A stretch of DNA of 64,000 bases, from the NCBI RefSeq assembly GCF_057098645.1, contig NZ_CM169472.1; one strand, given 5' to 3'. Every line of letters starts with the position of its first letter. Within the stretch, counting starts at the first letter, position 1. Shown in pieces: positions 14,360-32,593 of the stretch. The notes below the pieces were generated by a model that searched no databases, was not told the DNA's origin, and saw only the letters and a list, made by a program, of their open reading frames with translations. The translations under genes were made by a program, and so were the position numbers.

Positions 14360-14443
14360 ATATGTCCTTTTATCACTATACCAAGTCAAGTCATTGATTT
14401 AATTAAACAATTATCATTGAAAAAGTGCCAAAAATCGCAAATT

Positions 14444-14508
14444 GACTACACCATTAACTACACCGTTCGGTGCACTGTATGAAACAACGTGGAACAAATA
14501 GACACAAG
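14444..14508 (+). promoter_or_regulatory. Left-arm repeat cluster: GACTACACC, AACTACACC, then GAAACAACGTGGAACAAATAGACACAAG
   Basis: Near-identical arrangement found upstream of int at 32445-32510; candidate integrase arm-type and accessory-factor binding sites. Confidence 0.4.
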
Positions 14509-14572
14509 AAATATACAGGCGGGTAATCTTTCCAGGGGGAAGCGCACCAATTCATGAGGGGCGTTAATGTCG

Positions 14573-14615
14573 ATATGGGGATCCCCATAACGGGGCTACC
14601 GGATTTTTTTTCCGG
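14573..14615. repeat. Two perfect palindromes (TATGGGGATCCCCATA and CCGGATTTTTTTTCCGG) in the island left-end non-coding region
   Basis: Read directly from the sequence. Confidence 0.5.
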
Positions 14616-14874
14616 TTAACATTTAATCAGGCTGGTGGGTTTTACATACCCTTGATCACCGTAATGATGATCCAGATGTGCACCTTTTCCACCAATGGCG
14701 GAAAAGCTCCAACCGTAACGATGATCGCTATGGTTGCCTCGATGGTCTGCGTGGTCATTATGACCATTCAGCCAGTGACCTTAATCAGAATTTTTCGCTA
14801 AAAAATGACGTTGGCCACGTCATCCTGATAGCACAAAATCACGTCGATTTTTAATGAACGGTTAAACCGTCTTT

Positions 14875-14915
14875 TTGTCACGGTGTGTCACTGGTTGTCA
14901 CTCTCCGTCACGATT
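14875..14915. repeat. Four closely spaced GTCAC repeats (TGTCACGG, TGTCACTGG, TGTCACTCT, CGTCACGAT)
   Basis: Direct repeats about 110 bp downstream of the last packaging-operon gene; candidate TerS-binding/cos-pac or operator array. Confidence 0.35.
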
Positions 14916-15025
14916 GAGGTGGTGGTCATTCTGCCCGACCGCGCATTTTTGCGCTATCGGGAATATAAAACAGTTACCGCCGTCAGCTACCCAGCTCAGA
15001 ATTGAGCCGCCTTTTAATCAACAAG

Positions 15026-15307
15026 TTACCGCCGTAACCGCTCCGGCTTCTTCCAGTGGTACGTTATTTTCGCCTTCTCCCGATACAGTTCAACGCGGCG
15101 ATTGTAGGCCAGCATTTCCAGAACGCGGATCCGTATGTCGCGCATATCCGCATCATTAAGCTGGATACCATCACGGCGCATCACCTCAGCAACAACACGC
15201 GCATAATTTTCGGCTGTCACGCTGTCCGGCTGCGTGGTCTGTTCGTCAGCCTGCTGGCTGATTCCAGAGACGCGGCGGATTAATCGCAGTATTTCTGCTT
15301 CTGTCAT
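15026..15307 (-). CDS. Hypothetical protein (93 aa) downstream of terL
   Basis: ORF with GAGG Shine-Dalgarno 8 nt upstream, 14 nt after the terL stop. Confidence 0.55.
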   Translation of the reverse strand: MTEAEILRLIRRVSGISQQADEQTTQPDSVTAENYARVVAEVMRRDGIQLNDADMRDIRIRVLEMLAYNRRVELYREKAKITYHWKKPERLRR

Positions 15308-15320
15308 GCTGCTGACCTCA

Positions 15321-16982
15321 TTACACCCCGCTAAATTCTTCCAGTTTCTGGCGGTGGCTGTCGCTTATATCAAAAGCAAAATCCTCATGCTCTGCCTGGA
15401 ATGTACCAAACGCCATCAGCGCCGCCACGCTCGGGTCTATCTTGTTCGGTGATTTTTTCTTGTTCGGCTTGATATTGGCGTTCGCGTCACTCTGCATCAC
15501 GACGTTACTCATCGACCAGGACAACACCGGATCGCTACGATGCACAATCACCCTGCGGTTAACAAAAACTTCGAACGATTTCGCCGCCGGACTGAATCTG
15601 AGGTAGGTTTGCGGGAACGGCTCCACCTCAAAGCCTGCCCCCTGTAATTGCGTCCTGAGATGCGTGGCGTTCCACGTATCAAAGCCCACCAGCCTGATAT
15701 TAAATTTCTCCGCATCCTGCATGATGTCATCTCTGATCCGGTCGTAATCAATGCAGTCACCTGGCGTTGTGCGTATCCAGCCCGCTTTAGCCCACTGGCG
15801 ATAGACAGCGCGGTTTTTATTGGCGGGGTTCTGTAGCTGGAACTCCGGCAGATAATGACGGGAAACCAGCATGATATTTTTACCGACCGGAAAGGCATAG
15901 CACACGCTGGAAATATCGCTGGTTGATGATAAGTCCAGCCCCGCGTAACACTCCTGCCCGTGTAAATCTTCCTCCGTGAACGTTCCGGCACACTCAGCCC
16001 ATGCGCCGTTACCCATCCACGGGGTAGCCCCCTGGCACCAGATATTAAATCGCTTTGTCATCATCTCCACCCATTGCGACGGAATACCCCGCGCTTTCTG
16101 GATGGTTGAGGCCAGTTTTTCACGATCCACGGAAACATCGATGTTAGGGTTAGCCTTTATCCACATCGCCGGATCATCAACCTCGTTTTCGTCGTCCAGT
16201 TCGTAAATCAGTACAAAAATTGAATCGTTGACCTCTTCGCCGTCCAGGATCTGGCAGCAATAATCATAGTGCTGCTTACAGGCTGAAACGACGTTACTGC
16301 CCGATGTGGTAATGGCAAATAACAGCCCTTCGGGACGTGCGCCCATCCCCAGCTCAAGCGCGGAATAAACGCCGTTATCGGGGTGTAGGTGGTATTCGTC
16401 CACGATGGAAAGGCTTGGGTTTGTGCCCTCGATGGTTGCCGCTTTTGCTGCCAGCGGCTTTAACAGGCTGTTGCTTTTCGGGTGCATCACCTTGTGGGCC
16501 TGAATATTCACCCGCCTGCGTAACGGTCGGGATAAAAGGCACATCTGACGCGCATCATCAAAAACGATCCGCGCCTGGTCACGGCTCACCGCTGCGGTGT
16601 AAATATCCTGCTGCCCGTTCTCCATAATCAGAAACCAGTTAGCCAGAATCGCGGCGGTCGTGGATTTCGCATTTTTGCGCGGCACTTCGATAAAGGCGCT
16701 CGTGTATTTGCGCCGTCCGGTGGCCTTAACCTTAAAGCCGAGGATGCACGCAAAGGCGAACTGCTGCCACGGCTCCAGCTCAATGGGTCTGCCACGCATC
16801 GGTCCTTTTACGTGCGGGCACACCCTGGAAAAGGCAATAAACCGCTCCACAACCTCACGATCGAACGTGTAAAGGGGGCTTTTAAGGTCCGAAAAGTACC
16901 GTTTAACAGCCTGTTTTAACCGTTTACAGGCCGGAATTTTGCCCGTTTTTACGTCTTCTGCGTACTTATTCCAGGCGGTCAA
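15321..16982 (-). CDS. terL: Terminase large subunit (553 aa)
   Basis: Size and position after TerS; ATPase and nuclease regions typical of phage TerL. Confidence 0.85.
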   Translation of the reverse strand: MTAWNKYAEDVKTGKIPACKRLKQAVKRYFSDLKSPLYTFDREVVERFIAFSRVCPHVKGPMRGRPIELEPWQQFAFACILGFKVKATGRRKYTSAFIEVPRKNAKSTTAAILANWFLIMENGQQDIYTAAVSRDQARIVFDDARQMCLLSRPLRRRVNIQAHKVMHPKSNSLLKPLAAKAATIEGTNPSLSIVDEYHLHPDNGVYSALELGMGARPEGLLFAITTSGSNVVSACKQHYDYCCQILDGEEVNDSIFVLIYELDDENEVDDPAMWIKANPNIDVSVDREKLASTIQKARGIPSQWVEMMTKRFNIWCQGATPWMGNGAWAECAGTFTEEDLHGQECYAGLDLSSTSDISSVCYAFPVGKNIMLVSRHYLPEFQLQNPANKNRAVYRQWAKAGWIRTTPGDCIDYDRIRDDIMQDAEKFNIRLVGFDTWNATHLRTQLQGAGFEVEPFPQTYLRFSPAAKSFEVFVNRRVIVHRSDPVLSWSMSNVVMQSDANANIKPNKKKSPNKIDPSVAALMAFGTFQAEHEDFAFDISDSHRQKLEEFSGV

Positions 16983-17322
16983 GCTCGTCCTCTTCTTCTG
17001 TTTCCGGTGGATTTTTACGGCGGCTTATCGGGTCAAAACCGAGCAAGGAGGCCATTTTTATCATCACTCTTTCAGCGTCGGATTTTGCGCTTAATGCGGG
17101 GTTTCTGCTCTCGCCGCCCTGACTGTTAACAATGCTGAACCCGCGCGCCGCAAGGTCTGCAACGGCTTTCCGGTAAATGGAGTAGTTGACGCAATACAGT
17201 TCCAGATTGCTCCAGTCGGCGGGGGTCAGGTCTCCCCGTTCCGCAAGCTGCCGCGATTTTTCCCGCCACTGCTTCACGGCGATATCATCCAGGTAGGCGG
17301 GGGCTTTCGGTGGTCTTGCCAT
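16966..17322 (-). CDS. terS: Terminase small subunit, P27-family-like (118 aa)
   Basis: Small acidic-C-terminus protein overlapping terL start, downstream of an HNH gene. Confidence 0.75.
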   Translation of the reverse strand: MARPPKAPAYLDDIAVKQWREKSRQLAERGDLTPADWSNLELYCVNYSIYRKAVADLAARGFSIVNSQGGESRNPALSAKSDAERVMIKMASLLGFDPISRRKNPPETEEEDELDRLE

Positions 17323-17444
17323 GCTTATTTTTCGTCAGATTATTTTTCAAAAAATTCCCGTGCATAAAAATTTGAGGAGGCGTTCGGTGCCCGGCGGGGT
17401 CGGGTTTGTCCTGAAAACGCCCCCCACCCCGTCATACAGCCTCA

Positions 17445-17669
17445 TCAGCGATTGCGGAAACATTCCATAACCTCGCGGTCACGGTCGGTTAATCGCTTCG
17501 CTGTGATGCGTTCTGCGCGTCCTGACGCTTTATCTTTATGCCCTGTTTCCTGTGTCTTCCATGCGTCACGCTGCCTTATAAGTCCACGGATAAGGCGGTT
17601 TTGTTCCCGCTCATTCATCAGCGTCATACATCCAGTTATTGCGGTTAGCGGCCCGTTCTTCCTCTTCAT
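17445..17669 (-). CDS. Hypothetical basic protein (74 aa) overlapping the 3-prime end of the HNH gene
   Basis: ATG at 17669 preceded by AGGTGG Shine-Dalgarno (5-nt spacer); out of frame with HNH; start uncertain. Confidence 0.4.
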   Translation of the reverse strand: MKRKNGPLTAITGCMTLMNEREQNRLIRGLIRQRDAWKTQETGHKDKASGRAERITAKRLTDRDREVMECFRNR

Positions 17670-18051
17670 GAAATCCACCTGCGGCACGCTTGCTTTTTGT
17701 TGCCGGATCAAGCCATTTCGTTTTCTGGTTATGACACGCCTGGCACAATGGTTGATGGTTCCATTCGGGCCAGAAGAGAACATCATCACCGCCATTAATC
17801 GGGATAATGTGATCCACCACCACGGCGGGCGTATATATCCCCTTCTCAAGGCATCGCACGCATAACGGGTTTTTACTCAGATACATGGCGCGGTATTTGT
17901 CCCACTGTCTGGAGTACCCACGCGCGCGGCGGTGTCCTCGTCTGGCATCCTCTGCACGCCATGCCGCCCGCCTGTGCTCCTCACACTTGCCGGACTTCAC
18001 GCGCCTGTTACAGCCTGGTTCTGTGCATCGTCTTAATGGTTGCCACGGCAT
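17611..18051 (-). CDS. HNH endonuclease (146 aa), packaging-associated
   Basis: Cys/His-rich motifs (CxxC ... HIIPINGGDD ... CQACHNQK); located just upstream of terS as in HNH-dependent cos packaging. Confidence 0.85.
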   Translation of the reverse strand: MPWQPLRRCTEPGCNRRVKSGKCEEHRRAAWRAEDARRGHRRARGYSRQWDKYRAMYLSKNPLCVRCLEKGIYTPAVVVDHIIPINGGDDVLFWPEWNHQPLCQACHNQKTKWLDPATKSKRAAGGFHEEEERAANRNNWMYDADE

Positions 18052-18347
18052 CAGTACACCCCCACATCACGGTAAGCCGTCCAGAGCGCGCCAATCGTCA
18101 TGGGTACGCGCGTTTTTGCGTTATCCGCTACCAGCTGGCGATTCTCGTACAGGTGAGCGATAAACATCATGCAGCCAATCTTTATGGCTGGCGTGAACTC
18201 CAGCCCGTCATCAAAGCGCCTGCCTATATGTATCTGGCACGCCTCAAGCGATGCGGCAATGTATCCGCTGATTAACTGGTCTTCCTCGTCGCCATCGATG
18301 CGGCAATGGAGTTTCACTTCTTCCAGGGTGATAAGTTCTTCTGTCAT
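18051..18347 (-). CDS. Head-tail connector protein, gp6-like (98 aa)
   Basis: Size, position and sequence character of phage gp6-like connector proteins. Confidence 0.65.
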   Translation of the reverse strand: MTEELITLEEVKLHCRIDGDEEDQLISGYIAASLEACQIHIGRRFDDGLEFTPAIKIGCMMFIAHLYENRQLVADNAKTRVPMTIGALWTAYRDVGVY

Positions 18348-18682
18348 TTTTCCGCGCCCTCACGACAAAGAATTTCAAGGCGTGTCCTGGCGGCATCCGG
18401 CAGCGGCTGCCCGATGATATTCAGTACACGCCCCGCCAGCGGCCCCGTACTGACCTTTATCCGGCTGGTGGCGTTGATGTCCTTCCGGTACCGTATCCAG
18501 ATCCTTACGGTACCAATCGCCAGCTCTGCACCCGATGAAATGGCCTCCTTGCTGCTGATCATGTTCACGCTTGCCCAGAGTGTGTGACCGTCCTCCCACG
18601 TTTCGAGTATTTCGCCGGTTATATCCCTGGTCTGTTTCAGGGTCTGAATCGTTACCCTGTCACGCAGTCGCCCTATGTTCAT
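18344..18682 (-). CDS. Head-tail adaptor / head closure protein (112 aa from MNIGRL)
   Basis: MNIGRLRDRVTIQ... typical of head-tail adaptor family; starts 4 nt inside the portal 3-prime end. Confidence 0.65.
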   Translation of the reverse strand: MNIGRLRDRVTIQTLKQTRDITGEILETWEDGHTLWASVNMISSKEAISSGAELAIGTVRIWIRYRKDINATSRIKVSTGPLAGRVLNIIGQPLPDAARTRLEILCREGAEK

Positions 18683-19890
18683 TCCGGTTTTTCTCCCTCG
18701 CTGATTTTTACTTCCTGTTTCCATGCCTGGCTGAACTCATCACCACCATCACGCGGGGACAGCCCTTCACGTTCGCGGGCTTCGTTCGGGCACATAACGC
18801 CGGATTTGATGCCGCGTTCATAGGTGGCAAAGCGTTCGCCAGGTGTGGCCCGTAACAGGTCCGCGCTGTCAAACTCCACCTGATACCGGATACCAGGTAC
18901 AGGCGAGGCCACCAGCAGGGCGTTTTTTATCTGCTGCTCAAAGTTCGCCAGCCACGGGCGCATCGTCATGGTGAGAAATGCGCGGCTTGCCTCGCTGAAA
19001 TTGCTGTAGGTGCTGTTGCTGTATTCCTGCAAAAAAATCGGCGAGACGTTGAACATTCGGGCGATGTCTTCAATGGTGAAGCGACGGGAGGCCAGCCATT
19101 CAGCATCCTGATTACTCATGCCCAGCTGCTGATAGCTCATACCCCCTTCAAGGATGGGCGTTTTTCCGGCGTTTCTGGCCCCTTTGTAGCGTTCCAGTGC
19201 GGCTAATGCCTGTTTGCCCTTCACGCCGTCCAGCCATTCGCCTGACGTGATAACCCCTGCCGCCATCATGCCATCACGCATCACGCTCGCGCCGTGGCGT
19301 TGTTGGGCCAGCCCAAGCCCCAGCGATTCGCGGCAGATGGTTACAGGTGAGCGCCCCATAAAACCGTCATCCGTGGAGTAACGAAGGTGGAGAACCTCCC
19401 ACGGTAAATAGTTGCGGGTGTTTCCGGTGTAGGCGTCAGTGATGCAGTAGCGCCAGTTGTGTTCGCCTGTCTGCTCCACGTTCACCGACTGCGGCGGGTA
19501 AGGATGTAAAGCCACCGGAAAACCATCACGCCCCCACTGAATCACCGCATAAGCATTACCGTTTAACAGGCAGTGGCGGATCATCATTCGCTTAAACTGG
19601 TAGGGAGTCTGCCACGCGTTCGGGCGCTCGTTGAGGATGTGATCGACCGGATGAGAATCAAGCCACTCTCGGGCCTCCTTCCCCTTCTCATTGCGTACCA
19701 GGTACAGGTAACACGGCATGGTAGCCACCGCCTCAGAGATGACCGTGACGGCGTTCATGACGGCGGGCAGTGATTCCGCTGTCCCCGATGATACGTACTC
19801 ACCCGCCCCCGTGTTCGATGTGCCAGCCAGCGCCATAAACTCATCAAGCGTCATGCTGCGCTGCTCTTTTTTTCTTCTGAAAGGCCACAT
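18679..19890 (-). CDS. Portal protein, HK97 family (403 aa)
   Basis: Size and position between prohead protease and connector genes. Confidence 0.8.
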   Translation of the reverse strand: MWPFRRKKEQRSMTLDEFMALAGTSNTGAGEYVSSGTAESLPAVMNAVTVISEAVATMPCYLYLVRNEKGKEAREWLDSHPVDHILNERPNAWQTPYQFKRMMIRHCLLNGNAYAVIQWGRDGFPVALHPYPPQSVNVEQTGEHNWRYCITDAYTGNTRNYLPWEVLHLRYSTDDGFMGRSPVTICRESLGLGLAQQRHGASVMRDGMMAAGVITSGEWLDGVKGKQALAALERYKGARNAGKTPILEGGMSYQQLGMSNQDAEWLASRRFTIEDIARMFNVSPIFLQEYSNSTYSNFSEASRAFLTMTMRPWLANFEQQIKNALLVASPVPGIRYQVEFDSADLLRATPGERFATYERGIKSGVMCPNEAREREGLSPRDGGDEFSQAWKQEVKISEGEKPE

Positions 19891-19891
19891 A

Positions 19892-20464
19892 TCACACCCC
19901 CGCTAAATCCGCCCACCAGCGGCGATTATCCGCACGCGGCATTTTTTCGGGGTGCTGCTCATACAGGGAACGGCGGGCCAGCTCCACGCCGGAATCGGGG
20001 TAAGCCGGTACCGATGTAACGGTAATTTCGTACAGTTCCGCCACCAGCACGGTGCGCACGCATGGATCTGTTGTGGTATCCCATACATCCTTACGGGAGC
20101 GAAAGCCAAAGCTCATCCCCGAGATGTCCCCACGCTTAACCAGTTCGATAACGTCGCGCCCTGTACTGGTATCCGGTGGGGTCAGTTCAAAGCGTAACCC
20201 TGTTTCGTCCTCTTCCAGTTTCAGCGTGCCGGAACGGGTGCGCCCCAGTAACATGCTGTGGTCATGCTCATACAGGCCGCGAACGTCATTACCCGCCGCA
20301 AGCCATTCAGTAAACGCTCCCCGCTGGAATTTTTCGTAAAACTCACCCCATAGCAGATCAGAAAGGTTATCCCAGCGAACAACGTAGCCTGTAAGCGTGT
20401 TGCTGGCGCTGGTGGTGATTTCCGATGACCGGATTTCCATACTCTTCATAATTTTTTCACCCAT
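19892..20464 (-). CDS. Prohead maturation protease, HK97 family (190 aa)
   Basis: Size and position between major capsid and portal genes. Confidence 0.8.
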   Translation of the reverse strand: MGEKIMKSMEIRSSEITTSASNTLTGYVVRWDNLSDLLWGEFYEKFQRGAFTEWLAAGNDVRGLYEHDHSMLLGRTRSGTLKLEEDETGLRFELTPPDTSTGRDVIELVKRGDISGMSFGFRSRKDVWDTTTDPCVRTVLVAELYEITVTSVPAYPDSGVELARRSLYEQHPEKMPRADNRRWWADLAGV

Positions 20465-20503
20465 AAAACACTAAAGGGGCTTTTAAGCCCCTTCTGTATG
20501 CTG

Positions 20504-21661: not shown

Positions 21662-21699
21662 AAAAAAAAGTCCTGGGGTTAAGTAAGGAACTCCAGGAC
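21662..21699 (-). terminator. Intrinsic terminator immediately upstream of the capsid start codon
   Basis: Minus-strand RNA: GUCCUGG(AGUU)...(AACC)CCAGGAC stem followed by U8 and then AUG. Confidence 0.55.
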
Positions 21700-21751
21700 G
21701 CGGCAAACACTCAACCGTTTTTCATAAGGAAATCAGTAATCGCACCGATCG

Positions 21752-21906: not shown

Positions 21907-21920
21907 TTTACAAAACATGA

Positions 21921-25370: not shown

Positions 25371-25386
25371 ACTGTTGTTCCTTCTG

Positions 25387-26952
25387 TCAGTGGTAGTAGC
25401 CCGGACCACGCAGGTTTTCATGCTCTGAAGCATATGCCGGATGTTGTTCGCCCTGGCGGGATAATGGAAGCTCCAGGTTCTCCCGATGGTGACGCAGCAG
25501 ATTGTCGATAAAGCGTCTGTCAGGGGCGTTATAGTGCAGGGCAACGTAACAGGCCTTTTCCAGCCGTTCCGGGCCGTATTTTTTCTGAAGTGCCAGCAGC
25601 CCCAGAACTGCACGATAAGCCAGTTCCGGATGGGGTTTTGCCTTCAGCATGGATTCAACCACCCGGCCTGTGGACGGGCCCGTACGTTTTCCCTGCTCGA
25701 TCAGGCGTTCCGGTGTCCATGTCCCGTGCTGCCGGTGGCGCTCTGGCATGTGAAGCGGATTGGTTGTGTGTTTATATTCATGTGTGCTGCGCGGATGTTG
25801 CGCCACACACTGCCCCTTGTGCCAGAGCTGTACCACCGACTGCCCCGCCTTCAGTGACAGACGCTGACCGACCAGTTCGTGTGGAACGGAGTACCAGTGA
25901 CGGGCATATTCAACGTGGTAGTCAGGGCCAACCTTCACAGCTTTGTATTCCGTGTATTCATAAGGTGCCAGAGGCAGCGGAGAGAGTGCTGGCGCATCCA
26001 GTATGCGGAAGCGTTCTGCACGGGTTTGATTGCCGTACCCCTTCATTGGCCGGTTATTCATGTCTGTCAGTAACTCCCTAAGGCGCGCATTCAGCGCCCT
26101 GAGCGTGTGGAAGGTTTCATTACGGATGCGGGCAAGAAGCCATCGTTCAACGATGAGGACGCCGTTTTCTGCTTTTGGTTTATCTTTAGGTTTGCGTGGT
26201 CGGGCCGGGATGATAACCGTGCCATAGTGCTCAGCCAGTGCCTGATAACTGTCGTTGATGACAGGCTCATATCGATCGGCCTTTTTCACTGCGCTTCTGA
26301 GGTTATCGGGGATGAGCAGCTTCGGTACGCCGCCCAGGAAGGTCAGGCAACGGCTGTGGGCATTTAACCATGACATCATGTCCTGACCTTCGCACGCTTC
26401 AACGTAGGTATAGTTGGACGCCCCCATTACGGCCACGAAGATTGCCACGCGGCGTATCTCACCGGTGTCCGGATTAATAACAGGAACCGTAGGACCACAG
26501 AAGTCGATAAAAAGCTTTTCGCCGGCACGATGCTCCTGGCGCATGGAGAGACGTCGCGTTTTTTTCCACTCCCGGTAGCAACGGCAGAAGTGCGAGTATC
26601 CCATCGCTTTGTTACCCGCCTGTGCCTTGTATTCCATCCACAACAGTTGCCGCGTCACACCTGGTTTTCTCATTTCCGTATCGAAGTACAACATGTCAGG
26701 CATTACAAGCTCTGATGCAAAGGTGTCTTTGGGCGGAAAAATGAGTTTCTCCAGCGTGTCATGGGATATATCAGCAGGTAATGGCCATGACAGAGAAGAG
26801 GCTTTGAAGCGGGCAAGAACCTCAAAAACGGTTGAGGCGCTGATGTGTAACGTCAGTCCGATACAACGGTTAGTCAGCTTCTTGTCGAACTTGAGCTGAA
26901 GGATCTTAAAACAGGTTTCCATAGTGCTCCTGGATTTTCTCTTTCTGGACAT
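25387..26952 (-). CDS. istA: IS21-family transposase IstA
   Basis: N-terminal HTH then DDE integrase core; start ambiguous (26922, 26952 or 27033). Confidence 0.8.
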   Translation of the reverse strand: MSRKRKSRSTMETCFKILQLKFDKKLTNRCIGLTLHISASTVFEVLARFKASSLSWPLPADISHDTLEKLIFPPKDTFASELVMPDMLYFDTEMRKPGVTRQLLWMEYKAQAGNKAMGYSHFCRCYREWKKTRRLSMRQEHRAGEKLFIDFCGPTVPVINPDTGEIRRVAIFVAVMGASNYTYVEACEGQDMMSWLNAHSRCLTFLGGVPKLLIPDNLRSAVKKADRYEPVINDSYQALAEHYGTVIIPARPRKPKDKPKAENGVLIVERWLLARIRNETFHTLRALNARLRELLTDMNNRPMKGYGNQTRAERFRILDAPALSPLPLAPYEYTEYKAVKVGPDYHVEYARHWYSVPHELVGQRLSLKAGQSVVQLWHKGQCVAQHPRSTHEYKHTTNPLHMPERHRQHGTWTPERLIEQGKRTGPSTGRVVESMLKAKPHPELAYRAVLGLLALQKKYGPERLEKACYVALHYNAPDRRFIDNLLRHHRENLELPLSRQGEQHPAYASEHENLRGPGYYH

Positions 26953-27137
26953 TGACGTCTCCACTGGTTTAAACACGGCAATGGAGACTGTGGTGAAAAG
27001 AGTTAATTCCCGGAGTGACTGGCAGGATGCCAATCAATGATCGGAAGCATGCCAAATCGTGATCGATTGTGATGCCAAACTGTGATCGGAGATGGATGCC
27101 AAATCATGATCGATTCGAATGCCAAACTGCGATCGAT

Positions 27138-27434
27138 TCAGATGCCATTTTGCACGTTAACCATGGTTTTCAGCTTCTGGATGTTTGCCCGTGCCCTGGC
27201 GTTGCTGGTGGGCACGTTATGCGGCGCGGTCTGTACCAGAGAAAAATCACGCCGGAACTGATAAACAGGCATCACGCAATCATATTCGTAACCTTCACGG
27301 CGGTAAGTTACGCACCGTCCCGCCACGCCCTTAATCATTACCGTGCCGCCGTACTGGTCGCGGTAAATATCACCGCGCGTAAATTTAGGGTGAGTGTTGC
27401 CACTGGCAGTTAAGCCAGAATATTTAAGTTTCAT
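27138..27434 (-). CDS. Hypothetical protein (98 aa); last 6 codons replaced by IS21 end sequence
   Basis: Before the IS21 insertion this gene would end ...KLKTMVNGFRGKK with its TGA overlapping the rep ATG (24490-24492). Confidence 0.5.
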   Translation of the reverse strand: MKLKYSGLTASGNTHPKFTRGDIYRDQYGGTVMIKGVAGRCVTYRREGYEYDCVMPVYQFRRDFSLVQTAPHNVPTSNARARANIQKLKTMVNVQNGI

Positions 27435-27439
27435 TATTT

Positions 27440-27673
27440 TTATTCTCCGGTGTGCTGTTCTTTATATCTGTCGTGCAATAGATCTATTTTTTGCAGTTCC
27501 ATTATTACAGGCTCAAGTAGCGTTATTAATGCCGTGGCAATTCTTGATTTTTGTTTGTCGCGTTCATTATCTCCAAGCGTGTCAAGCCATATGCGCAATA
27601 TTTCCAGCATGTTTTCACTGTGAGAAAGTGCAAGAAATGCGCGGTCTATTGTTTCAAGGTAAATATCACGCAT
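27440..27673 (-). CDS. Hypothetical protein (77 aa)
   Basis: Coupled ORF (5-bp gap to next gene, 1-nt gap after previous stop). Confidence 0.5.
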   Translation of the reverse strand: MRDIYLETIDRAFLALSHSENMLEILRIWLDTLGDNERDKQKSRIATALITLLEPVIMELQKIDLLHDRYKEQHTGE

Positions 27674-27674
27674 A

Positions 27675-27896
27675 TTAATCCCCGTCCGTCGTTTTTCTTA
27701 AAACAACTTCTGTCACGAAATCAGCATAGTTAGCGGCAATATCAAGAATATTTAGCCCTGTATCCCTGTGCTCATCAGTGCAAAGAAAGAAAAAAGCCAC
27801 CAGCATAATTTCAGATATTGACGAAAGCGCATCAGCCGCATCATCAGGAACGCCGGAAAATTCCTGTTTCAGGGAATTAAAACGATCATCACGCAT
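27675..27896 (-). CDS. Hypothetical protein (73 aa)
   Basis: First ORF of the three-gene set upstream of rep. Confidence 0.45.
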   Translation of the reverse strand: MRDDRFNSLKQEFSGVPDDAADALSSISEIMLVAFFFLCTDEHRDTGLNILDIAANYADFVTEVVLRKTTDGD

Positions 27897-27929
27897 AACC
27901 CCGTTACTTTATTCGTACCCCTTATAATG

Positions 27930-28129
27930 GGGTGTTAGCCAGCCAGACCCGGCATGATTACTGCCCCCAGTCGTCCATGATCCGGGGGGTGATGTCACCG
28001 GGTCTGGTGGGGCGCTGGTAACCGCTAATAGGGGTCAGGTCAGGCACTTTTGCCGGGACCGTCTGTAACGTGGATGCCGGTACCTGCTCCCCGTGGTTAT
28101 CTGGTTAACCCATATACAAGGGAGACAGA
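27930..28129 (+). ncRNA. Candidate IS110-type bridge (guide) RNA in the 5-prime non-coding end
   Basis: Structured GC-rich non-coding flank upstream of the recombinase, where IS110-group elements encode their bridge RNA; not verified by folding. Confidence 0.25.
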
Positions 28130-29326
28130 ATGACCGAATCCAGCGATTACGAATCCGTCCAGGTCTTTATCGGCGTTGATGTCGGTAAAGATACGCATCA
28201 CGCTGTAGCCATTAATCGTTCAGGTAAACGCCTGTTCGATAAAGCATTACCCAACGACGAAAACAAACTCAGGTCGCTAATATCTGACCTGAAACAACAT
28301 GGTCAGATACTGCTGGTTGTTGATCAGCCAGCTACCATCGGTGCGTTACCTGTCGCCGTTGCCCGCTCAGAAGGAGTCCTTGTCGGATACCTCCCTGGAC
28401 TGGCCATGCGCCGCATAGCCGACTTACACGCCGGTGAAGCTAAAACTGATGCTCGTGACGCTGCCATCATTGCCGAAGCTGCCCGTACCCTGCCTCACGC
28501 GCTACGCACGCTGAAACTGGCTGACGAGCAAATCGCCGAACTCTCCATGCTCTGCGGCTTCGATGATGATCTTGCCGCACAGACAACGCAGGCCAGCAAC
28601 CGTATCCGCGGCCTTCTGACCCAGATACATCCGGCACTGGAGCGCGTTCTCGGTCCGAGACTTGATCACCCGGCGGTACTCGATCTTCTCCAGCGATATC
28701 CCTCACCAGAAAAACTCGCTTCGCTGGGTGAGAAGAAGCTGGCAGCCCAGCTCTGCAAACTTGCGCCTCGTCTGGGTAAACGCCTTGCAGCAGACATAGC
28801 TCAGGCACTGGCCGAACAAACCGTCGTCGTTCCCGGCACGAATGCCGCTGCCGTAGTACTGCCACGTCTGGCACTCCAGCTCATCACGCTGCGTAAGCAA
28901 AGAGACGAGGTGGTGCTTGAGGTAGAACAGCGAGTTCTTGCTCACCCTCTTTACCCGGTCCTGACCAGTATGCCCGGAGTCGGTGTCAGGACCGCAGCCA
29001 GACTCCTCACCGAGGTCGCCTGCCGCGCCTTCGCCTCTGCCGCACATCTCGCTGCTTATGCTGGCCTTGCGCCGGTAACTCGGCGATCCGGCTCGTCAAT
29101 ACGCGGTGAGCATCCCTCGCGACGGGGTAATAAAGCTCTCAAACGGGCGTTGTTCCTGTCGGCCTTCGCCGCGCTCAGGGATCCGCTCTCCAGGGCTTAC
29201 TACACCCGCAAAATGAGTCAGGGAAAACGACACAATCAGGCGCTTATCGCCCTGGCGAGACGACGCTGCGACGTTCTGTTCGCCATGATGCGCGACGGGA
29301 CTTTTTATACCCCGCAGGCGTCATAA
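28130..29326 (+). CDS. IS110-family transposase/recombinase (398 aa)
   Basis: N-terminal IGVDVGKDTHHAVAIN (RuvC-like DEDD) motif and C-terminal serine-containing domain. Confidence 0.85.
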   Translation: MTESSDYESVQVFIGVDVGKDTHHAVAINRSGKRLFDKALPNDENKLRSLISDLKQHGQILLVVDQPATIGALPVAVARSEGVLVGYLPGLAMRRIADLHAGEAKTDARDAAIIAEAARTLPHALRTLKLADEQIAELSMLCGFDDDLAAQTTQASNRIRGLLTQIHPALERVLGPRLDHPAVLDLLQRYPSPEKLASLGEKKLAAQLCKLAPRLGKRLAADIAQALAEQTVVVPGTNAAAVVLPRLALQLITLRKQRDEVVLEVEQRVLAHPLYPVLTSMPGVGVRTAARLLTEVACRAFASAAHLAAYAGLAPVTRRSGSSIRGEHPSRRGNKALKRALFLSAFAALRDPLSRAYYTRKMSQGKRHNQALIALARRRCDVLFAMMRDGTFYTPQAS

Positions 29327-29339
29327 CATGCTTGACAAC

Positions 29340-29561
29340 TTAATAGGGGCACCCCCCATTTTCACAATCAGCAATAAGAATATTTTTAGCGTCATTCAGC
29401 GACCGCGTGGCGGTGTATCGGATACATTCCAGGGCGAACTGTGTCCGGTCTTTCTGTTCTTCTCCCTGCGCAAGCTCTGCAGTGCATTCAATATCGATAA
29501 GCGCGTGCATCAGCGTAGTGAGCGCGGCGGCTGCTGCGTCCGGTGTGGTTTTATTGCACAT
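29340..29561 (-). CDS. Hypothetical Cys-containing protein (73 aa, MCNKTTPDAAAAALTTLMHALIDIECTAEL...)
   Basis: AGGAGG Shine-Dalgarno 8 nt upstream; ATG overlaps the end of the preceding gene by 11 bp; stop is 14 nt from the IS110 transposase stop. Confidence 0.5.
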   Translation of the reverse strand: MCNKTTPDAAAAALTTLMHALIDIECTAELAQGEEQKDRTQFALECIRYTATRSLNDAKNILIADCENGGCPY

Positions 29562-29751
29562 GGCACACCTCCTGACGAATACGGGCGGCGAATACAGCAA
29601 CACAACCGGACGGGCAACGGCTACGCGCTTCGCGTTCCGTCCAGGCGGTTACGTGGATGATTTGAGATTCTCCGGCACTCAGTGCCAGAAAACGCCACAC
29701 AAAGGCCGTTTGTGTGTGTACAAGGTGTGGTATATGATTTACAGCAACCAT
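29551..29751 (-). CDS. Hypothetical Cys/His-rich protein (66 aa, MVAVNHIPHLVHTQTAFVWRF...CPSGC...CHVQ)
   Basis: AGGAG Shine-Dalgarno 5 nt upstream of ATG; first gene of the leftward small-gene operon. Confidence 0.55.
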   Translation of the reverse strand: MVAVNHIPHLVHTQTAFVWRFLALSAGESQIIHVTAWTEREARSRCPSGCVAVFAARIRQEVCHVQ

Positions 29752-29780
29752 AACGGCTCCTAGTTTACGTTGTTGGTTAG

Positions 29781-29825
29781 AAGCCCTGCGAGTGGTAACG
29801 ACACTTGCGGGGCTTTGTCTTTTCA
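29781..29825 (+). terminator. Strong hairpin with U-rich tail, best formed on plus-strand RNA
   Basis: 14-bp stem AAGCCCUGCGAGUG/CACUUGCGGGGCUU with two G-U pairs on the plus strand (C-A mismatches on the minus strand), followed by UGUCUUUUC. Confidence 0.45.
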
Positions 29826-29845
29826 TCGATTACCTTGATAAAGGT

Positions 29846-29924
29846 GTCAGCCACTATATTAGTAACGGGTGTCAGCCACGTCAATAGTGTTTTTCCGTTT
29901 TCTTGTGTGTATACTGTCAGCCAC
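29846..29924 (+). promoter_or_regulatory. Three direct repeats TGTCAGCCAC (29846, 29870, 29915) overlapping the promoter of the RHH gene
   Basis: Exact 10-bp repeats; the third overlaps a TATACT -10-like hexamer about 30 bp upstream of the RHH start. Confidence 0.5.
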
Positions 29925-29945
29925 CTAATAACGAGGAAATCAGAT

Positions 29946-30125
29946 ATGGCAACAAAAGCAGTTAATGCAAAATCCAAAAAGCTTGAGGCTCGAGTACCAC
30001 ACGCAATAGCTGATGCTGTAGAAAATTTAAAGGAAGATGGCGAAAGTACAGGGCAATTTATCGTTTCGGCACTTGAAGGCGAGATCAAACGCCGCCAGCG
30101 CCGCAAGGCCAAAGAATCAGAATAA
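29946..30125 (+). CDS. Ribbon-helix-helix (CopG/Arc-like) DNA-binding protein (59 aa)
   Basis: MATKAVNAKSKKLEARVPHAIADAVENLKEDGESTGQFIVSALEGEIKRRQ: beta-strand then two helices pattern; plus strand, divergent from the small-gene operon. Confidence 0.6.
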   Translation: MATKAVNAKSKKLEARVPHAIADAVENLKEDGESTGQFIVSALEGEIKRRQRRKAKESE

Positions 30126-30167
30126 TCACTATCAGCGCCGTGGTGTGAGGTATTACGGCGCATTGCT

Positions 30168-30356
30168 ATGCAGGACAACACAATGACCGATAAAGAATTG
30201 ACCAAAACATTATCACCGGCACGGAAAAGACGGCGCAGAAAGATAGAGCATGAATCAGAAAGATTCGCGCCATGTGCTTTTGCCCTTGAGCAATTCCTTA
30301 AAGAATACAGGGAAAAGCGCTCATTGCAGGTATGGCAACGAACTGAACCAGACTGA
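30168..30356 (+). CDS. Hypothetical highly basic protein (57-62 aa, contains RKRRRRK)
   Basis: ORF directly downstream of the RHH gene and upstream of an intrinsic terminator; weak ribosome-binding site. Confidence 0.4.
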   Translation: MQDNTMTDKELTKTLSPARKRRRRKIEHESERFAPCAFALEQFLKEYREKRSLQVWQRTEPD

Positions 30357-30451
30357 TTGCATTGCCCACCAGCCTGATAGCGGCTATCATCCCCGTGCTT
30401 ATGTTTGGGATCACACACACAAACGGCGCAGCGGGTTATCTGTTCAGAAAG

Positions 30452-30479
30452 GCGGCTCCATTTCGGGGCCGCTTTTTTT
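30452..30479 (+). terminator. Intrinsic terminator of the plus-strand RHH cassette
   Basis: GCGGCUCC-AUUUC-GGGGCCGC hairpin followed by UUUUUUU. Confidence 0.6.
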
Positions 30480-30625
30480 ATGCCTGAAAAACCCCAATTT
30501 TGTGGTTTTCCAGTCTCACCAGGGCGAACGAATCCCCGCCCACGTTCTGGCGTATATTCAATCTTCATGGTTATAGCTCTGTGTTCAGATGATTGATGTG
30601 TGGCGGCTGTGTGCCGCCAGCGTGA

Positions 30626-30814
30626 TTAATGAACTGCCTTGCAGCTATCCTTCCAGGCCAGAACCTCGGATAAAGACCAGCCAACGGAACGACCGCCAAG
30701 TTTACGACGTGATGGGAATTGTCCGGCCTTTTCCAGGCGGTAGCGACACGTACGGCTAAGGCCGGTTAGTTTTTCGCATTCTTTTTCACGTATAAACCGA
30801 TCAGTGCTTAACAC
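30626..30814 (-). CDS. alpA: AlpA-family phage regulatory protein (62 aa)
   Basis: LTGLSRTCRYRLEKAGQFPSRRKLGGRSVGWSLSEVLAW matches the AlpA/Xis-like HTH family pattern. Confidence 0.8.
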   Translation of the reverse strand: MLSTDRFIREKECEKLTGLSRTCRYRLEKAGQFPSRRKLGGRSVGWSLSEVLAWKDSCKAVH

Positions 30815-31188
30815 TATTGCCCCCTTTCGTTTCTTAAAGAGTTATTTCGTGTTCTATTGCGTTGAGATGTGTCTGATTGTGTCAGGATGATTCAGAGTTG
30901 GCAAATGTTGAGGCCGTATGGTTTACAGAAAGAGGAATAATCAGGATAAAATCATTTAAATTCATGTTAATACAAAGACATAAAATATTGTTTCATGCCT
31001 TTTTTCTCGCTATTTAAAGAGTGATTCGCTAGTGTATAAAAAACCAGTGACACATTAAAAATCAGCTACTTATAAATCTGTACACTTTTTCGCCTCTTGT
31101 TCGTAGTTGTTCCGCATTGTTGCTCATTGTTGCACGTTGTATCTGTTCGCATATCCAGTATGCGCATACTGAAAAAATACGAAAAAAA

Positions 31189-32406
31189 TTATTTTCTTCT
31201 GGCTACTGGTAGCGTGGTTACGTTTTCATGTGTTCCCGCCAGTATCCCTAACCGCTCCATCCACATATCCAGCGCATTGCGTTTAGCATCCAGATAACGG
31301 GAATGATTATAAACTCGCTGCATTCCTGGCATCTGGTGGCCTGTAAGCTGCTCCACGACATGCGGATCAACGCCTAAATCGTTCAGCATGGTTGTAAAGG
31401 TGCGCCGGATGTCATGCAGTGACCAGTGAGGATGATTAAGCCTCCTGTGCGCTAATCTTCCATACTGCGATACGCTGGCCTCCTGTTTCACTTCCCCCAG
31501 CAATAAGCCCGTGTGCCTGTTCTGCTCCACCAGCTGCGTGACGAACGGCAGGATCGCTTCCGGTATGGGCCGGAATATTGCGACCTTCGTTTTGCTGTGC
31601 TCCTTCGGAACGGTCCATAGCATTTCCGTAAAATCCCACTCCCCGATCTCCGATAGCCTCAGTTCTACCGTCCTGGCTCCGAAGACAATCAGGAGGCGGA
31701 TTAACGCGACGTAGTAAGGGGAAAATATTTTTTTGTCCAGTGCCTGCAATAATTCGCCAAGTTCTTTGTTACTTAAGACACGTTCGCTTATATCCGGTTT
31801 TTTCCCAACGTCCGCCACGTTCAGATCGTCCAGAACGTTGCTGATTGCATAGCGCCGCCTACGGCAGAACTTAAGCGCCTGTTTGCACGCCTGTAGCACG
31901 AATCCGGCAGTAACAGGCGTTCGCTTTGCCACCTGGTCAAAACAGGCCAGCCAGTGCCGTAGCTCGCATTTATCCAGCGGCATAGCACCAATCTGCTGTA
32001 TTACGTGATTATTAAGTCGCCTTTTCAGGGCGATATAATCCACGCGCTTTTCCTTTACGTAATACTCAAGCCAGTAGGTGAGCGCATCGCCAACCGTTAC
32101 GGGCTTTAACGCTTCCTGTACGGTGTAATTCATCTCATGACGTGGATTTTTCCCCTCAGCCAGCCATGTGCGACACTGTGCGGCTTTTTCCCTAGCTGCT
32201 TTCAGGCTCAGATCAGGATAACTTCCCAGCTTAATGCGTTCGGGTCGTGTCTCCCTTCCCGTTCCGGCCCTGTATGTGAAATACCAGGTCAATTTCCCTG
32301 ATGTTAAATATTTCACGCTCAGGTTTCCGCCATCACTATAAAACGTGTTTTTCTCCGCTGGCTTACCATGAAGTTTCCTTAGCAAGGTATCGCTCAGTTT
32401 GTTCAT
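31189..32406 (-). CDS. int: Tyrosine integrase, P4-like (about 405 aa)
   Basis: Arm-binding N-terminal domain plus catalytic R..HxxR..Y signature (HDIRRTF...RYLD); start at ATG 32406 (GTG 32418 also possible). Confidence 0.9.
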   Translation of the reverse strand: MNKLSDTLLRKLHGKPAEKNTFYSDGGNLSVKYLTSGKLTWYFTYRAGTGRETRPERIKLGSYPDLSLKAAREKAAQCRTWLAEGKNPRHEMNYTVQEALKPVTVGDALTYWLEYYVKEKRVDYIALKRRLNNHVIQQIGAMPLDKCELRHWLACFDQVAKRTPVTAGFVLQACKQALKFCRRRRYAISNVLDDLNVADVGKKPDISERVLSNKELGELLQALDKKIFSPYYVALIRLLIVFGARTVELRLSEIGEWDFTEMLWTVPKEHSKTKVAIFRPIPEAILPFVTQLVEQNRHTGLLLGEVKQEASVSQYGRLAHRRLNHPHWSLHDIRRTFTTMLNDLGVDPHVVEQLTGHQMPGMQRVYNHSRYLDAKRNALDMWMERLGILAGTHENVTTLPVARRK

Positions 32407-32444
32407 TGCTCTGCTCACGTTTTACCCCCTCTTTACGAAAAAGT

Positions 32445-32510
32445 GACTACACCAGTGACTACACCGATCGTTGCACAAAGGGCTACAACGTGAAACAAGC
32501 TGGAACAAGG
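32445..32510 (+). promoter_or_regulatory. Right-arm repeat cluster: GACTACACC x2 then ACAACGTGAAACAAGCTGGAACAAGG
   Basis: Between the int start and the chromosomal junction; mirrors the left-arm cluster. Confidence 0.4.
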
Positions 32511-32593
32511 AAAATCACAAATCTGTTGATAATCAAAAACATAATGCACAGCCTGAAACATTATGAAACAGCAAAAAACACTAAATGATAAAA

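Follow-up and report, generated by a model that had tools for sequence, protein, structure and literature searches.

The window, by which we mean the whole 64,000-nucleotide stretch that was analysed, carries an island at 14360-32593, limits taken from a sequence-only reading that proved accurate to within a few bases, with the island-specific DNA spanning 14368-32593 between the att cores. phoQ ends at 14359 and a tqsA 3′ fragment runs from 32594 (ORF 32616-33500), such that the flanks read purB-phoP-phoQ and then 'tqsA-pntB-pntA, i.e., two loci joined head-to-head that lie ~0.49 Mb apart in K-12 and other genomes. The ends comprise the following features:

14358-14367: left core AAATATGTCC, phoQ/roxA-site type, overlapping the phoQ stop codon
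14368-15025: left arm, phoQ-site type by sequence comparison with islands L001 and L002
14444-14464: GACTACACC-like repeat pair in the left arm, candidate integrase arm sites
14485-14497: motif CAACGTGGAACAA in the left arm
32440-32593: right arm, with a GACTACACC pair at 32445-32465 and CAACGTG(A/G)AACAA-like repeats at 32486-32508
32594-32602: right core TGCTGTTAT, tqsA-site type

These ends are mismatched: the left junction is of the phoQ/roxA type, and the right one, where the integrase lies, is of the tqsA type. Islands L002 and L003, at the phoQ/roxA site, carry the AAATATGTCC core on either side, and the empty K-12 phoQ/roxA site reads GAATAAATATGCCCATAC. Island L001, at the tqsA site, has the TGCTGTTAT core at each end; the sequence of the intact tqsA in L004 is TTATTGCTGTTATTCTTAACC, and collinearity with L004 begins exactly at 32594.

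Gene content and lineage

The sequence-only reading had described a satellite that makes capsids itself and takes only its tails from a helper phage. Every island ORF that it named is present at its place on the minus strand, and profile searches (PHROGs, NCBIfam, Pfam) bore out each named function, all head proteins being homologues. The head and packaging genes run capsid, protease, portal, closure, adaptor, HNH, TerS, TerL (identities are to EcCIEDL933):

20504-21661, minus: major capsid protein, HK97-fold, with N-terminal delta domain (phrog_10; TIGR01554, E 5e-88)
19892-20464, minus: prohead protease, HK97 family (phrog_80, E 5e-68; 99.5%)
18679-19890, minus: portal (phrog_12, E 3e-116; 99.5%)
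18344-18682, minus: head closure (connector) protein (phrog_25, TIGR01563; 96.4%)
18051-18347, minus: head-tail adaptor, Ad1, gp6-like (phrog_40, E 5e-36; 99.0%)
17611-18051, minus: HNH endonuclease of the packaging module (phrog_144, E 1e-44; 98.6%)
17445-17627, minus: 60-aa protein (phrog_3173; 100% identical to the same-position EDL933 protein)
16966-17322, minus: TerS, P27 family (phrog_83, E 3e-39; 100%)
15321-16982, minus: TerL (phrog_9, E 4e-178; 98.4% over the full length)
15026-15307, minus: 93-aa protein, last gene after TerL (phrog_1561, E 2e-55; 92%), with no match in PADLOC

The element is not new, having already been described as an EcCIEDL933-type capsid-forming phage-inducible chromosomal island (cf-PICI). 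Protein comparison gave 96-100% identity and equal lengths between its ten packaging-module proteins and their counterparts in this experimentally defined satellite, which supports the claim of a capsid-building, tail-borrowing element, and on sequence grounds it is almost certainly a chromosomal copy of the lineage typified by EcCIEDL933 (Alqurainy et al., bioRxiv 10.1101/2022.09.08.507074; capsid structure 10.1101/2025.02.11.637232). The prototype itself is found between roxA and phoQ in E. coli O157:H7 EDL933. No island protein matched the PHROG tail, holin, or lysin families, and the noted absence of tail and lysis genes holds both inside the island and next to it, where core gene phoQ and the tqsA fragment flank. 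The head-gene order stands as first read, while its permutation is a known property of the lineage and not special to this island; the paper on EcCIEDL933 states that organisation differs between the island and helper packaging modules and says nothing further on order (10.1101/2022.09.08.507074).

The capsid protein is 99.2% identical to the EcCIEDL933 gene 1786 product and matches a solved structure (PDB 9gyi, 385 aa, E 4e-255). Its delta (scaffold) domain of ~92 residues is followed by S93-T-G-V-P-A-D, i.e., the SxGxxAD motif at residues 93-99, with S93 as the predicted mature N-terminus; the same maturation motif was reported for the EcCIEDL933 and HK97 capsids (10.1101/2022.09.08.507074; 10.1101/2025.02.11.637232). 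By gene order, counted from capsid gene 1786, the 60-aa protein probably corresponds to EcCIEDL933 gene 1792, mutation of which severely reduced transfer (10.1101/2022.09.08.507074). A putative cos site can be placed between genes at 17323-17444, with terS on one side and the HNH/60-aa genes on the other, and no experimental mapping was found in the literature examined. We chose this placement because HK97-like packaging has an HNH-cos-TerS arrangement.

Upstream of the head genes lie the early, replication, and regulatory genes and two insertion sequences (IS):

31189-32418, minus: tyrosine integrase, P4-like architecture, tqsA-site type (Pfam Arm-DNA-bind_3 and Phage_integrase)
31107-31139, minus: pair of CAACGTGGAACAA-like repeats between int and alpA, upstream of the latter
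30626-30814, minus: AlpA (phrog_2790, phrog_66; 100% identical to EcCIEDL933 AlpA)
29777-30568, minus: 263-aa ORF in the variable region downstream of alpA
29946-30125, plus: YlcI/YnfO-family gene (NF041551), opposite strand to the 263-aa ORF
29551-29751, minus: homologue of Icd-like host cell-division inhibitors (NF033153, E 6e-18; 98% identical to EcCIEDL933)
27898-29373, plus: ISEc20, IS110 family, transposase 28130-29326 (99.7% identical to annotated copies)
27440-27896, minus: two small genes, 77 and 73 aa (phrog_2196, phrog_24341)
27138-27434, minus: DUF4222 gene (phrog_285; annotation in relatives)
24516-27154, minus: ISSso4-like IS21-family element, istA 25387-27033 and istB 24615-25613 (99.6-99.9% identical to annotated ISSso4-family copies)
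23092-24492, minus: RepA-family helicase (AAA_25), replication initiator/helicase (Pfam AAA_25, E 5e-43; phrog_2850)
22895-23093: iteron cluster just downstream of repA, six AAGTGAG(G/A) copies, one inverted
22640-22891, minus: 83-aa protein (phrog_1231; 91% identical to EcCIEDL933)
22233-22643, minus: SSB (phrog_44, E 1e-39; 97.8% identical to EcCIEDL933)
21950-22222, minus: PerC-family small regulator (phrog_994 and transcriptional-activator PHROGs; PGAP annotation of relatives), 89% identical to its EcCIEDL933 counterpart
21878-21922: tandem CAACGTGGAACAA-like repeats preceding the capsid operon

The integrase gene shares 98.8% nucleotide identity with tqsA-site island L001 versus 88-92% with phoQ-site islands. 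AlpA was needed for EcCIEDL933 induction, as the alpA mutant phenotype indicated, and the gene after alpA was variable, with no function assigned (10.1101/2022.09.08.507074); here, the 263-aa ORF had no family match in PHROG, NCBIfam, or PADLOC. The RepA resembles the DUF927 protein of EcCIEDL933 only in its N-terminal 125 aa (67% identity), and the iteron cluster is a presumptive replication origin. The repeats at 21878-21922, which occupy a conserved position in five further copies of the island, EcCIEDL933 among them, are a candidate operator for the island's activator.

Insertion sequences and mosaic structure

The two IS account for ~4.1 kb of the 18.2-kb island. The ISSso4-like element, bounded by 7 bp of duplicated target sequence (CGTTAAC, 24509-24515 and 27155-27161), lies 16 bp upstream of the repA start codon (ATG), having inserted into the DUF4222 gene at its 3′ end; the DUF4222 ORF terminates inside the element, with the IS end replacing its last codons. 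ISEc20 lies opposite to the island genes, directly adjoins the 73-aa gene at its start codon, and removes the 3′ end from a small ORF (~29374-29561); no uninterrupted empty site for it was found, relatives being ~0.4-0.7 kb longer at that place. Both IS sit between alpA and repA. The ISSso4-like element cuts the early genes off from repA and ISEc20 breaks the early region upstream of it, and early transcription into repA is probably polar-blocked.

From 14360 to 16500, the sequence has 1-9 mismatches per 500 bp to phoQ-site island L002 and is diverged from L001, from which the counterpart of 14646-15016 is absent. Farther right, L001 is the nearly identical island, with 0-3 mismatches per 500 bp, and L002 the more divergent one. 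The mismatch profile places the crossover between phoQ-type left and tqsA-type right sequence in this interval, inside which both references fit equally:

16500-18000: crossover interval

The exchange did not take place at the core, because phoQ-type sequence continues just inside the left core, and L001 is not the exact parent, because its 0.33-kb perC-adjacent segment is missing here. That segment is also missing from L002, and mosaicism is common among these islands, a point against the explanation that follows. The left 2-3.5 kb (left arm and TerL) probably derives from a phoQ/roxA-site copy and the remainder (head genes, replication module, alpA, and int) from one residing within tqsA. 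Homologous recombination between two inverted resident copies would be the simplest cause, and it would have inverted ~0.49 Mb and left each island with one att half-site per type. Complete genomes with both copies in inverted orientation do exist, and the pair in JNE141411 (AP027256) shares 9.8 kb at 99.7% identity. The junctions between the tqsA 5′ fragment and an island and between an island and roxA fall outside the window.

Judging from the single breakpoint in the window, we consider it likely that the island is a real recombinant at an inversion breakpoint. The hybrid ends might instead be an assembly artefact in which two ordinary copies, at phoQ/roxA and in tqsA, were joined across near-identical head modules. 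The hybrid phoQ…tqsA arrangement was seen in 0/5,426 complete E. coli genomes, the set surveyed for island arrangements, and is therefore either rare or a mis-join across two near-identical copies; co-resident copies that may share ~10 kb at 99.7% identity are a classic cause of such errors, and the crossover falls exactly where the two island types are indistinguishable. Against this, the window is contiguous across four multi-copy IS and 45 kb of flanks, which suggests a long-read or finished, repeat-resolving assembly, and E. coli is well known to undergo real inversions of this kind, between homologous mobile elements in inverted orientation; we hold an artefact to be improbable.

Life cycle and mobility

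For the prototype, the steps of the cycle were shown by experiment, beginning with the triggering of EcCIEDL933 alpA by a helper siphovirus, of which HK106 and HK446 are examples (10.1101/2022.09.08.507074). By transfer from EcCIEDL933 at 96-100% protein identity, a helper siphovirus would likewise trigger the alpA of this island, and AlpA would switch on excision, replication, and the packaging operon. The capsid protein with its delta domain, the protease, and the portal would then form the island's own small T=4 HK97-fold capsids, its own HNH, TerS, and TerL would package its DNA, and its own adaptor and head-closure proteins would seal the head, with infectivity arising only once helper-made tails had joined. 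Because every head and packaging gene retains its full length, capsid production could survive even in the rearranged island.

The implied mobilisable 14-kb unit is probably not what this locus holds, given that two IS have inserted and the attachment sites do not match. The alternative of a cf-PICI that is still functional throughout and mobilisable, tolerating the IS and undergoing normal excision and transfer with a suitable helper, would fit the full-length ten packaging genes, alpA, int, repA, and ssb, the presence of iterons, and an ISSso4-like element that spares repA and its ribosome-binding region and runs in the same direction, making read-through possible. Also in its favour, published cf-PICI sizes run to ~18 kb (10.1101/2022.09.08.507074; 10.1101/2025.02.11.637232); the present unit measures 18.2 kb, versus 15.4 kb for the prototype. 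Nevertheless, the cores differ (AAATATGTCC left, TGCTGTTAT right), the integrase is of the right-hand type only, and 4.1 kb of IS, one of the two antisense, separates alpA from repA. Tyrosine recombinases normally require identical overlap regions, and we regard full function as unlikely. With a tqsA-type integrase facing a phoQ-type left core, clean excision is unlikely, and the two IS and the position at an apparent inversion breakpoint suggest that this copy is probably stuck in place; overall, we lean towards a rearranged copy that would be unable to excise or transfer.

Another rival reading is that of an HK97-like prophage, not a satellite, which has decayed and lost its tail and lysis modules; in its favour, the head and packaging genes are phage homologues, and IS elements and pseudogenes occur nearby. 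Such decay is hard to reconcile with the same compact ~14-15 kb gene set bounded by precise att repeats at two sites (54/5,426 and 246/5,426 genomes), with near-identity to an experimentally proven helper-dependent satellite, with an early module (AlpA, P4-like integrase, RepA plus iterons) that is PICI-like and not lambdoid, or with core genes adjoining both ends, and is extremely improbable. Taken together, the island is very probably an EcCIEDL933-lineage cf-PICI copy that is recombinant and IS-bearing and for which excision is unlikely, a joint statement whose weaker parts we infer. The sequence-only reading was right on gene content and silent on the two IS (4.1 kb), the non-matching ends, and the mosaic structure.

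Comparison with known systems

With HK97 and HNH-dependent cos packaging phages, the island shares an HK97-fold capsid protein with a delta domain and SxGxxAD motif, a prohead protease, a portal, gp6/gp7-like connectors, and a packaging trio of HNH, TerS, and TerL, but it lacks tail, lysis, and lysogeny modules and its head genes are reordered (capsid-protease-portal … HNH-TerS-TerL); the capsid of the EcCIEDL933 prototype is T=4 and not T=7. Satellite P4 is similar in integrase architecture (Arm-DNA-bind_3 plus Phage_integrase), an AlpA/Vis-type regulator, and an Icd-like gene, but P4 depends on its helper for capsid protein, terminase, and cos site and has Sid, Psu, and Delta genes, whereas the island has its own full head module and no PHROG match to Sid-, Psu-, or Delta-like proteins among its ORFs.

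Classical PICIs such as EcCICFT073 and EcCIED1a share the integrase-alpA-replication early module and AlpA-dependent induction, and int, alpA, and rep of EcCIEDL933 are common to classical Gram-negative PICIs (10.1101/2022.09.08.507074). Those islands, however, lack genes for capsid, portal, adaptor, connector, and TerL and instead remodel the capsids of the helper; in SatelliteFinder, portal, adaptor, and connector are forbidden genes for PICIs.

Among close relatives, the tqsA-site island of 14EC001 (CP024127) is 98.8-99.7% identical to the right 14 kb of the present island, and the phoQ-site islands of 07-4299 (CP027462) and JNE141411 are >99% identical to its left 2 kb; these islands, like the tqsA-site copy that JNE141411 also has, show matching cores at both ends and carry neither these two IS nor the phoQ…tqsA combination. 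Relative to EcCIEDL933, the island differs in its two IS insertions and non-matching att ends, a tqsA-targeting integrase (91% aa identity), a 466-aa RepA/AAA_25 helicase in place of a 710-aa DUF927 replication protein, and the absence of a 74-aa small gene upstream of the capsid gene, while the two agree in gene order all the way from alpA to the final gene, in the phoQ-adjacent left junction type, and in their conserved intergenic motifs.

Gene content of the island and its surroundings

The window is an E. coli-type chromosome in which 18.2 kb separate the phoQ stop codon (14359) from a 3' fragment of tqsA ('tqsA, from 32594), with island genes all on the minus strand and core genes (phoQ on one side, tqsA/pntB on the other) adjoining both island ends. 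Genes were assigned by profile searches (PHROGs, NCBIfam, and Pfam) and are given below in transcription order.

Features of the island (window positions)
31189-32418, minus: integrase, the recombinase at one island end (Pfam Arm-DNA-bind_3 and Phage_integrase; phrog_1)
30626-30814, minus: AlpA, regulation module (phrog_2790/66)
29777-30568, minus: variable ORF of 263 aa, without a family match
Between the 263-aa ORF and the small genes, minus: Icd-like gene
Upstream of repA, minus: several small genes, including a DUF4222 gene
23092-24492, minus: RepA-family AAA_25 helicase (Pfam)
Directly downstream of repA: six AAGTGAG(G/A) iterons
After repA, minus: 83-aa gene, SSB, PerC-family regulator
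20504-21661, minus: major capsid protein (phrog_10/TIGR01554)
After the capsid gene, minus: prohead protease (phrog_80), portal (phrog_12)
After the portal, minus: head closure Hc1 or connector (phrog_25/TIGR01563), then head-tail adaptor Ad1 (phrog_40)
End of the transcription order, minus: HNH (phrog_144), 60-aa gene, TerS (phrog_83, P27 family), TerL (phrog_9), 93-aa gene

The sequence-only reading had placed a tail-less, capsid-encoding island at 14360-32593, and both its limits and its head proteins (capsid, portal, and terminase homologues) were confirmed by these searches. The island encodes its own replication module (RepA helicase, iterons, and SSB), its own capsid, maturation protease, portal, adaptor, and connector, and its own HNH, TerS, and TerL, and no tail, tape-measure, baseplate, holin, or lysin PHROG match was found among all island ORFs, which bears out the absence of tail and lysis genes. 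The permuted head-gene order noted earlier is real, but it is a property of the lineage and not peculiar to this copy. The island content stands as first described, but two insertion sequences inside it had been overlooked. One, an ISSso4-like element of the IS21 family (24516-27154; 7-bp duplication CGTTAAC), sits upstream of repA, 16 bp from its start codon and within the final codons of the DUF4222 gene, and parts repA from its upstream genes. The other, ISEc20 (IS110 family; 27898-29373), runs opposite to the island genes; one side directly adjoins the start codon of a 73-aa gene, and on the other side the element truncates a small ORF. When the two ISEc20 flanks were joined as a query for the empty site, they were contiguous in no genome, and relatives have 0.4-0.7 kb of extra sequence there, so a simple insertion could not be demonstrated; either a neighbouring deletion or a different set of variable genes may account for this.

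An Rfam scan of 14000-33000 at a permissive threshold returned no RNA family, and hence no P4-like CI/C4-type RNA was detectable. PADLOC assigned none of nine unassigned small proteins to a defence family, which gives no support to the variable regions carrying a known immune system. The 263-aa ORF is rich in Cys, Arg, and Ser, of odd composition, annotated by PGAP as "hypothetical protein" in relatives, and without a match in PHROG, NCBIfam, or PADLOC; since a YlcI/YnfO-family gene lies inside it on the plus strand (29946-30125), the long ORF may be no real gene. A 74-aa gene upstream of the capsid gene is present in EcCIEDL933, the prototype capsid-forming PICI (cf-PICI), and in L001 (the tqsA-site island of another E. 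coli genome), and is absent from the window island and from the phoQ-site island L002. This difference (window 21922-21950 versus L001 12401-12731 and, in the phoQ/roxA-site island L003, 27484-27894) marks a small variable region at the packaging-operon boundary.

Elsewhere in the window, an IS5-family element (226-1415; transposase 373-1353) occupies the ariR/ymgA region upstream of bluF relative to E. coli JNE141411. The glucuronide operon (49958-53835) is decaying, with uidA intact, uidC disrupted by another IS5-family element (transposase 50818-51798), and uidB split by substitution into ORFs 53542-53835 and 52462-53508. The uidC::IS5 junction also occurs in 13 complete genomes. Such genomes were followed up as candidates for close relatives; in the one examined, tqsA is unoccupied, and this empty site served only to define attB. 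Compared with strain S1-KEN-03-A, hdhA (56853-57619) has a single base deleted from a T7 run at 57214 and is thereby split into two ORFs, which may reflect either a genuine frameshift or a sequencing error in the homopolymer. Finally, iraM and ycgX come immediately after icd (6301-7551), and the icd site of this genome is free of an e14-type prophage (window 4775-7551).

Mismatched ends and a probable inversion

The lineage occupies at least two sites, between phoQ and roxA (L002, EDL933), where the flanks carry AAATATGTCC, and inside tqsA (L001), where they carry TGCTGTTAT, and both attB sequences were confirmed by the empty sites of K-12 and S1-KEN-03-A. The window island combines the two: its left junction is of the phoQ/roxA type and its right junction of the tqsA type, and its integrase is also of the tqsA type (98.8% nucleotide identity to L001 versus 88-92% to phoQ-site islands). 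Mismatch profiles in 500-bp steps against L001 and L002 revealed that 14360-16500 is near-identical to L002 (1-9 mismatches per 500 bp) and contains 370 bp that L001 lacks, while 18000-24500 and 29559-32593 are near-identical to L001 (0-8 mismatches per 500 bp); the nearest relative switches within 16.5-18.0 kb, where both fit equally. We read the exchange of ends as internal homologous recombination. Integrase-mediated exchange at the att cores was rejected because sequence immediately within the left core is phoQ-type, as are the 2 kb that follow, which places the crossover inside the island.

The flanking genes run purB-phoP-phoQ and then 'tqsA-pntB-pntA-ydgH...tus...add. Relative to K-12, two loci ~0.49 Mb apart are thereby joined head-to-head, the signature of an inversion. 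Given this gene order, the hybrid ends are most simply explained by an inversion, at whose breakpoint the island probably lies; a deletion was rejected, as it does not account for flanks that are head-to-head relative to K-12. Both copies occur on opposite strands in several complete genomes, so the precondition for such an inversion arises naturally. Among 5,426 complete E. coli genomes, the phoQ-type left junction was found in 54, the tqsA-type right junction in 246, and the hybrid phoQ-island-tqsA arrangement in none. The reciprocal junctions lie outside the window, which leaves room for an assembly mis-join across two island copies, an explanation of the hybrid ends that we consider improbable. 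JNE141411 (NZ_AP027256.1) carries copies at the phoQ/roxA site (L006 19300-35350) and the tqsA site (L007 2460-17560), ~0.49 Mb apart and inverted, one with a frameshifted integrase and the other with a frameshifted TerL. These copies have 9.8 kb in common at 99.7% identity, which suggests that the co-resident satellites underwent gene conversion. As the un-inverted ancestor JNE141411 was rejected, because its copies have become homogenised and, in the middle part, neither is closer to the window island; judged by these sequences, it illustrates the precondition for inversion and is not the parent of the window.

A fuller version of the inversion reading, which we regard as doubtful, is that two co-resident cf-PICIs served as portable homology, such that the ~0.49-Mb phoQ-tqsA segment (which we take from the K-12 map to hold dif and the inner Ter sites) was inverted, the island ends were swapped, the att sites were mismatched on both copies, tqsA was split permanently, and an intact capsid module was left stranded on the chromosome. 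Nothing specific on satellite-mediated inversions, and none for cf-PICIs, was found in the literature searched. If true, satellite-satellite recombination would both drive large rearrangements and open a path to satellite immobilisation or domestication. The ~10 kb of near-identical inverted homology in co-resident cf-PICIs is able to rearrange the chromosome near the terminus.

Candidate cis-elements and probable consequences for this copy

Two repeat types were found in intergenic or arm DNA of the island.

Repeat elements (window positions)
14485-14497: CAACGTGGAACAA, left arm
21880-21902: CAACGTGGAACAA, upstream of the capsid operon
31107-31139: CAACGTGGAACAA, upstream of alpA
32486-32508: CAACGTGGAACAA, right arm near the int promoter
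14444-14464 and 32445-32465: GACTACACC pairs, in the two arms only

The 13-nt CAACGTGGAACAA, allowing at most 2 mismatches, has six matches in the window versus 1.8 expected by chance, all in island intergenic DNA. Its four positions are kept in five other copies (L001, L002, L003, L006, and L007), including EcCIEDL933, and the non-island flanks of all examined loci hold just two matches, which is chance level. These repeats are a candidate AlpA operator, combining excision-directionality and activator sites, and as such a concrete one that is amenable to an AlpA-binding test, while the GACTACACC pairs are candidate integrase arm sites. By analogy with HK97-type packaging layouts, which run HNH-cos-TerS, a candidate cos site is probably located in the 122-bp gap 17323-17444, between the HNH/60-aa genes and terS.

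An intact excisable element needs the same core at both ends, matching its integrase, and was rejected here because AAATATGTCC and TGCTGTTAT differ. Excision would join a phoQ-type attL with a tqsA-type attR via a tqsA-type integrase, and since tyrosine recombinases normally need identical overlap sequences, these unlike cores make clean excision unlikely. The two IS elements, situated between alpA and repA, should act as polar on early transcription. Capsid synthesis might nevertheless persist, given an intact head module with a repeat element of its own upstream. The gene tqsA is already listed as split by integrative elements, and in this chromosome its halves would be separated by 0.49 Mb. 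The length of the unit exceeds that of the 15.4-kb prototype by 18%, which puts it at the top of the published cf-PICI size range (10.1101/2025.02.11.637232). The IS insertions and the end exchange with a sister copy illustrate one way in which a satellite can become inactive, which is relevant where satellites are scored "intact" on gene content alone.

Relation to EcCIEDL933 and other satellites

A temperate HK97-like prophage was rejected as the class of this island because it has no tail, lysis, or immunity modules and is bordered directly by core genes on either side. A classical PICI lacks its own portal, adaptor, connector, and TerL (all counted as forbidden for PICIs by SatelliteFinder) and depends on helper capsid proteins; the window island has all four, and this class was therefore rejected. 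P4-like satellites hijack helper capsids through Sid/Psu/Delta-type proteins and use the helper's cos site and terminase, while the window island has no Sid/Psu/Delta-type PHROG family, encodes its own capsid and terminase, and resembles P4 only in its integrase, AlpA, and Icd-like parts. In every sequence criterion of SatelliteFinder and of the 2025 capsid-structure study (10.1101/2025.02.11.637232), it is instead a cf-PICI, with a size (18.2 kb including 4.1 kb of IS, ~14.1 kb without) in keeping with the ~10-18 kb criterion.

EcCIEDL933, the element on which cf-PICIs were defined (Alqurainy et al., 10.1101/2022.09.08.507074), was located between roxA and phoQ of the EDL933 chromosome and its proteins were compared pairwise with those of the window island. 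The proteins listed below are equal in length to their counterparts, with the following identities.

Identity to EcCIEDL933
AlpA, TerS, and 60-aa protein: 100%
Portal and protease: 99.5%
Capsid: 99.2%
Adaptor: 99.0%
HNH: 98.6%
TerL and Icd-like: 98.4%
SSB: 97.8%
Head closure: 96.4%

The capsid protein matches PDB 9gyi across all 385 residues (E 4e-255) and has its SxGxxAD maturation motif at residues 93-99, where the structure paper puts the mature N-terminus (10.1101/2025.02.11.637232). The proposal of a satellite that builds its own capsids is thereby supported by near-identical packaging proteins and by the class criteria.

For the prototype, induction by helper phages HK106 and HK446 requires alpA, and mutations in packaging genes abolish transfer without affecting replication or the helper, except for hypothetical gene 1792, whose mutation severely lowers transfer (10.1101/2022.09.08.507074). 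Overexpression of alpA on its own drives EcCIEDL933 reproduction. EcCIEDL933 is unaffected by helper capsid mutants and affected by helper tail mutants, and its packaging module is organised otherwise than that of its helper (10.1101/2022.09.08.507074). Its capsid is a T=4, 47.5-nm shell of HK97 fold, and tail fit is set by adaptor and connector, with HK106 tails accepted and HK022 tails not (10.1101/2025.02.11.637232). Helper-dependent induction, small own capsids, and helper-tail-only transfer would carry over to the window island by sequence identity, and we infer the same tail preference from adaptor and closure proteins that are 96-99% identical.

The IS insertions and the recombinant ends at a probable inversion breakpoint, which are specific to this copy, are of modest interest. 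The island itself is a copy of a satellite that has been published and characterised in both its structure and its genetics, with similar copies in hundreds of sequenced E. coli genomes, and its family, lineage, gene order, capsid structure, and tail-stealing biology are all already published.
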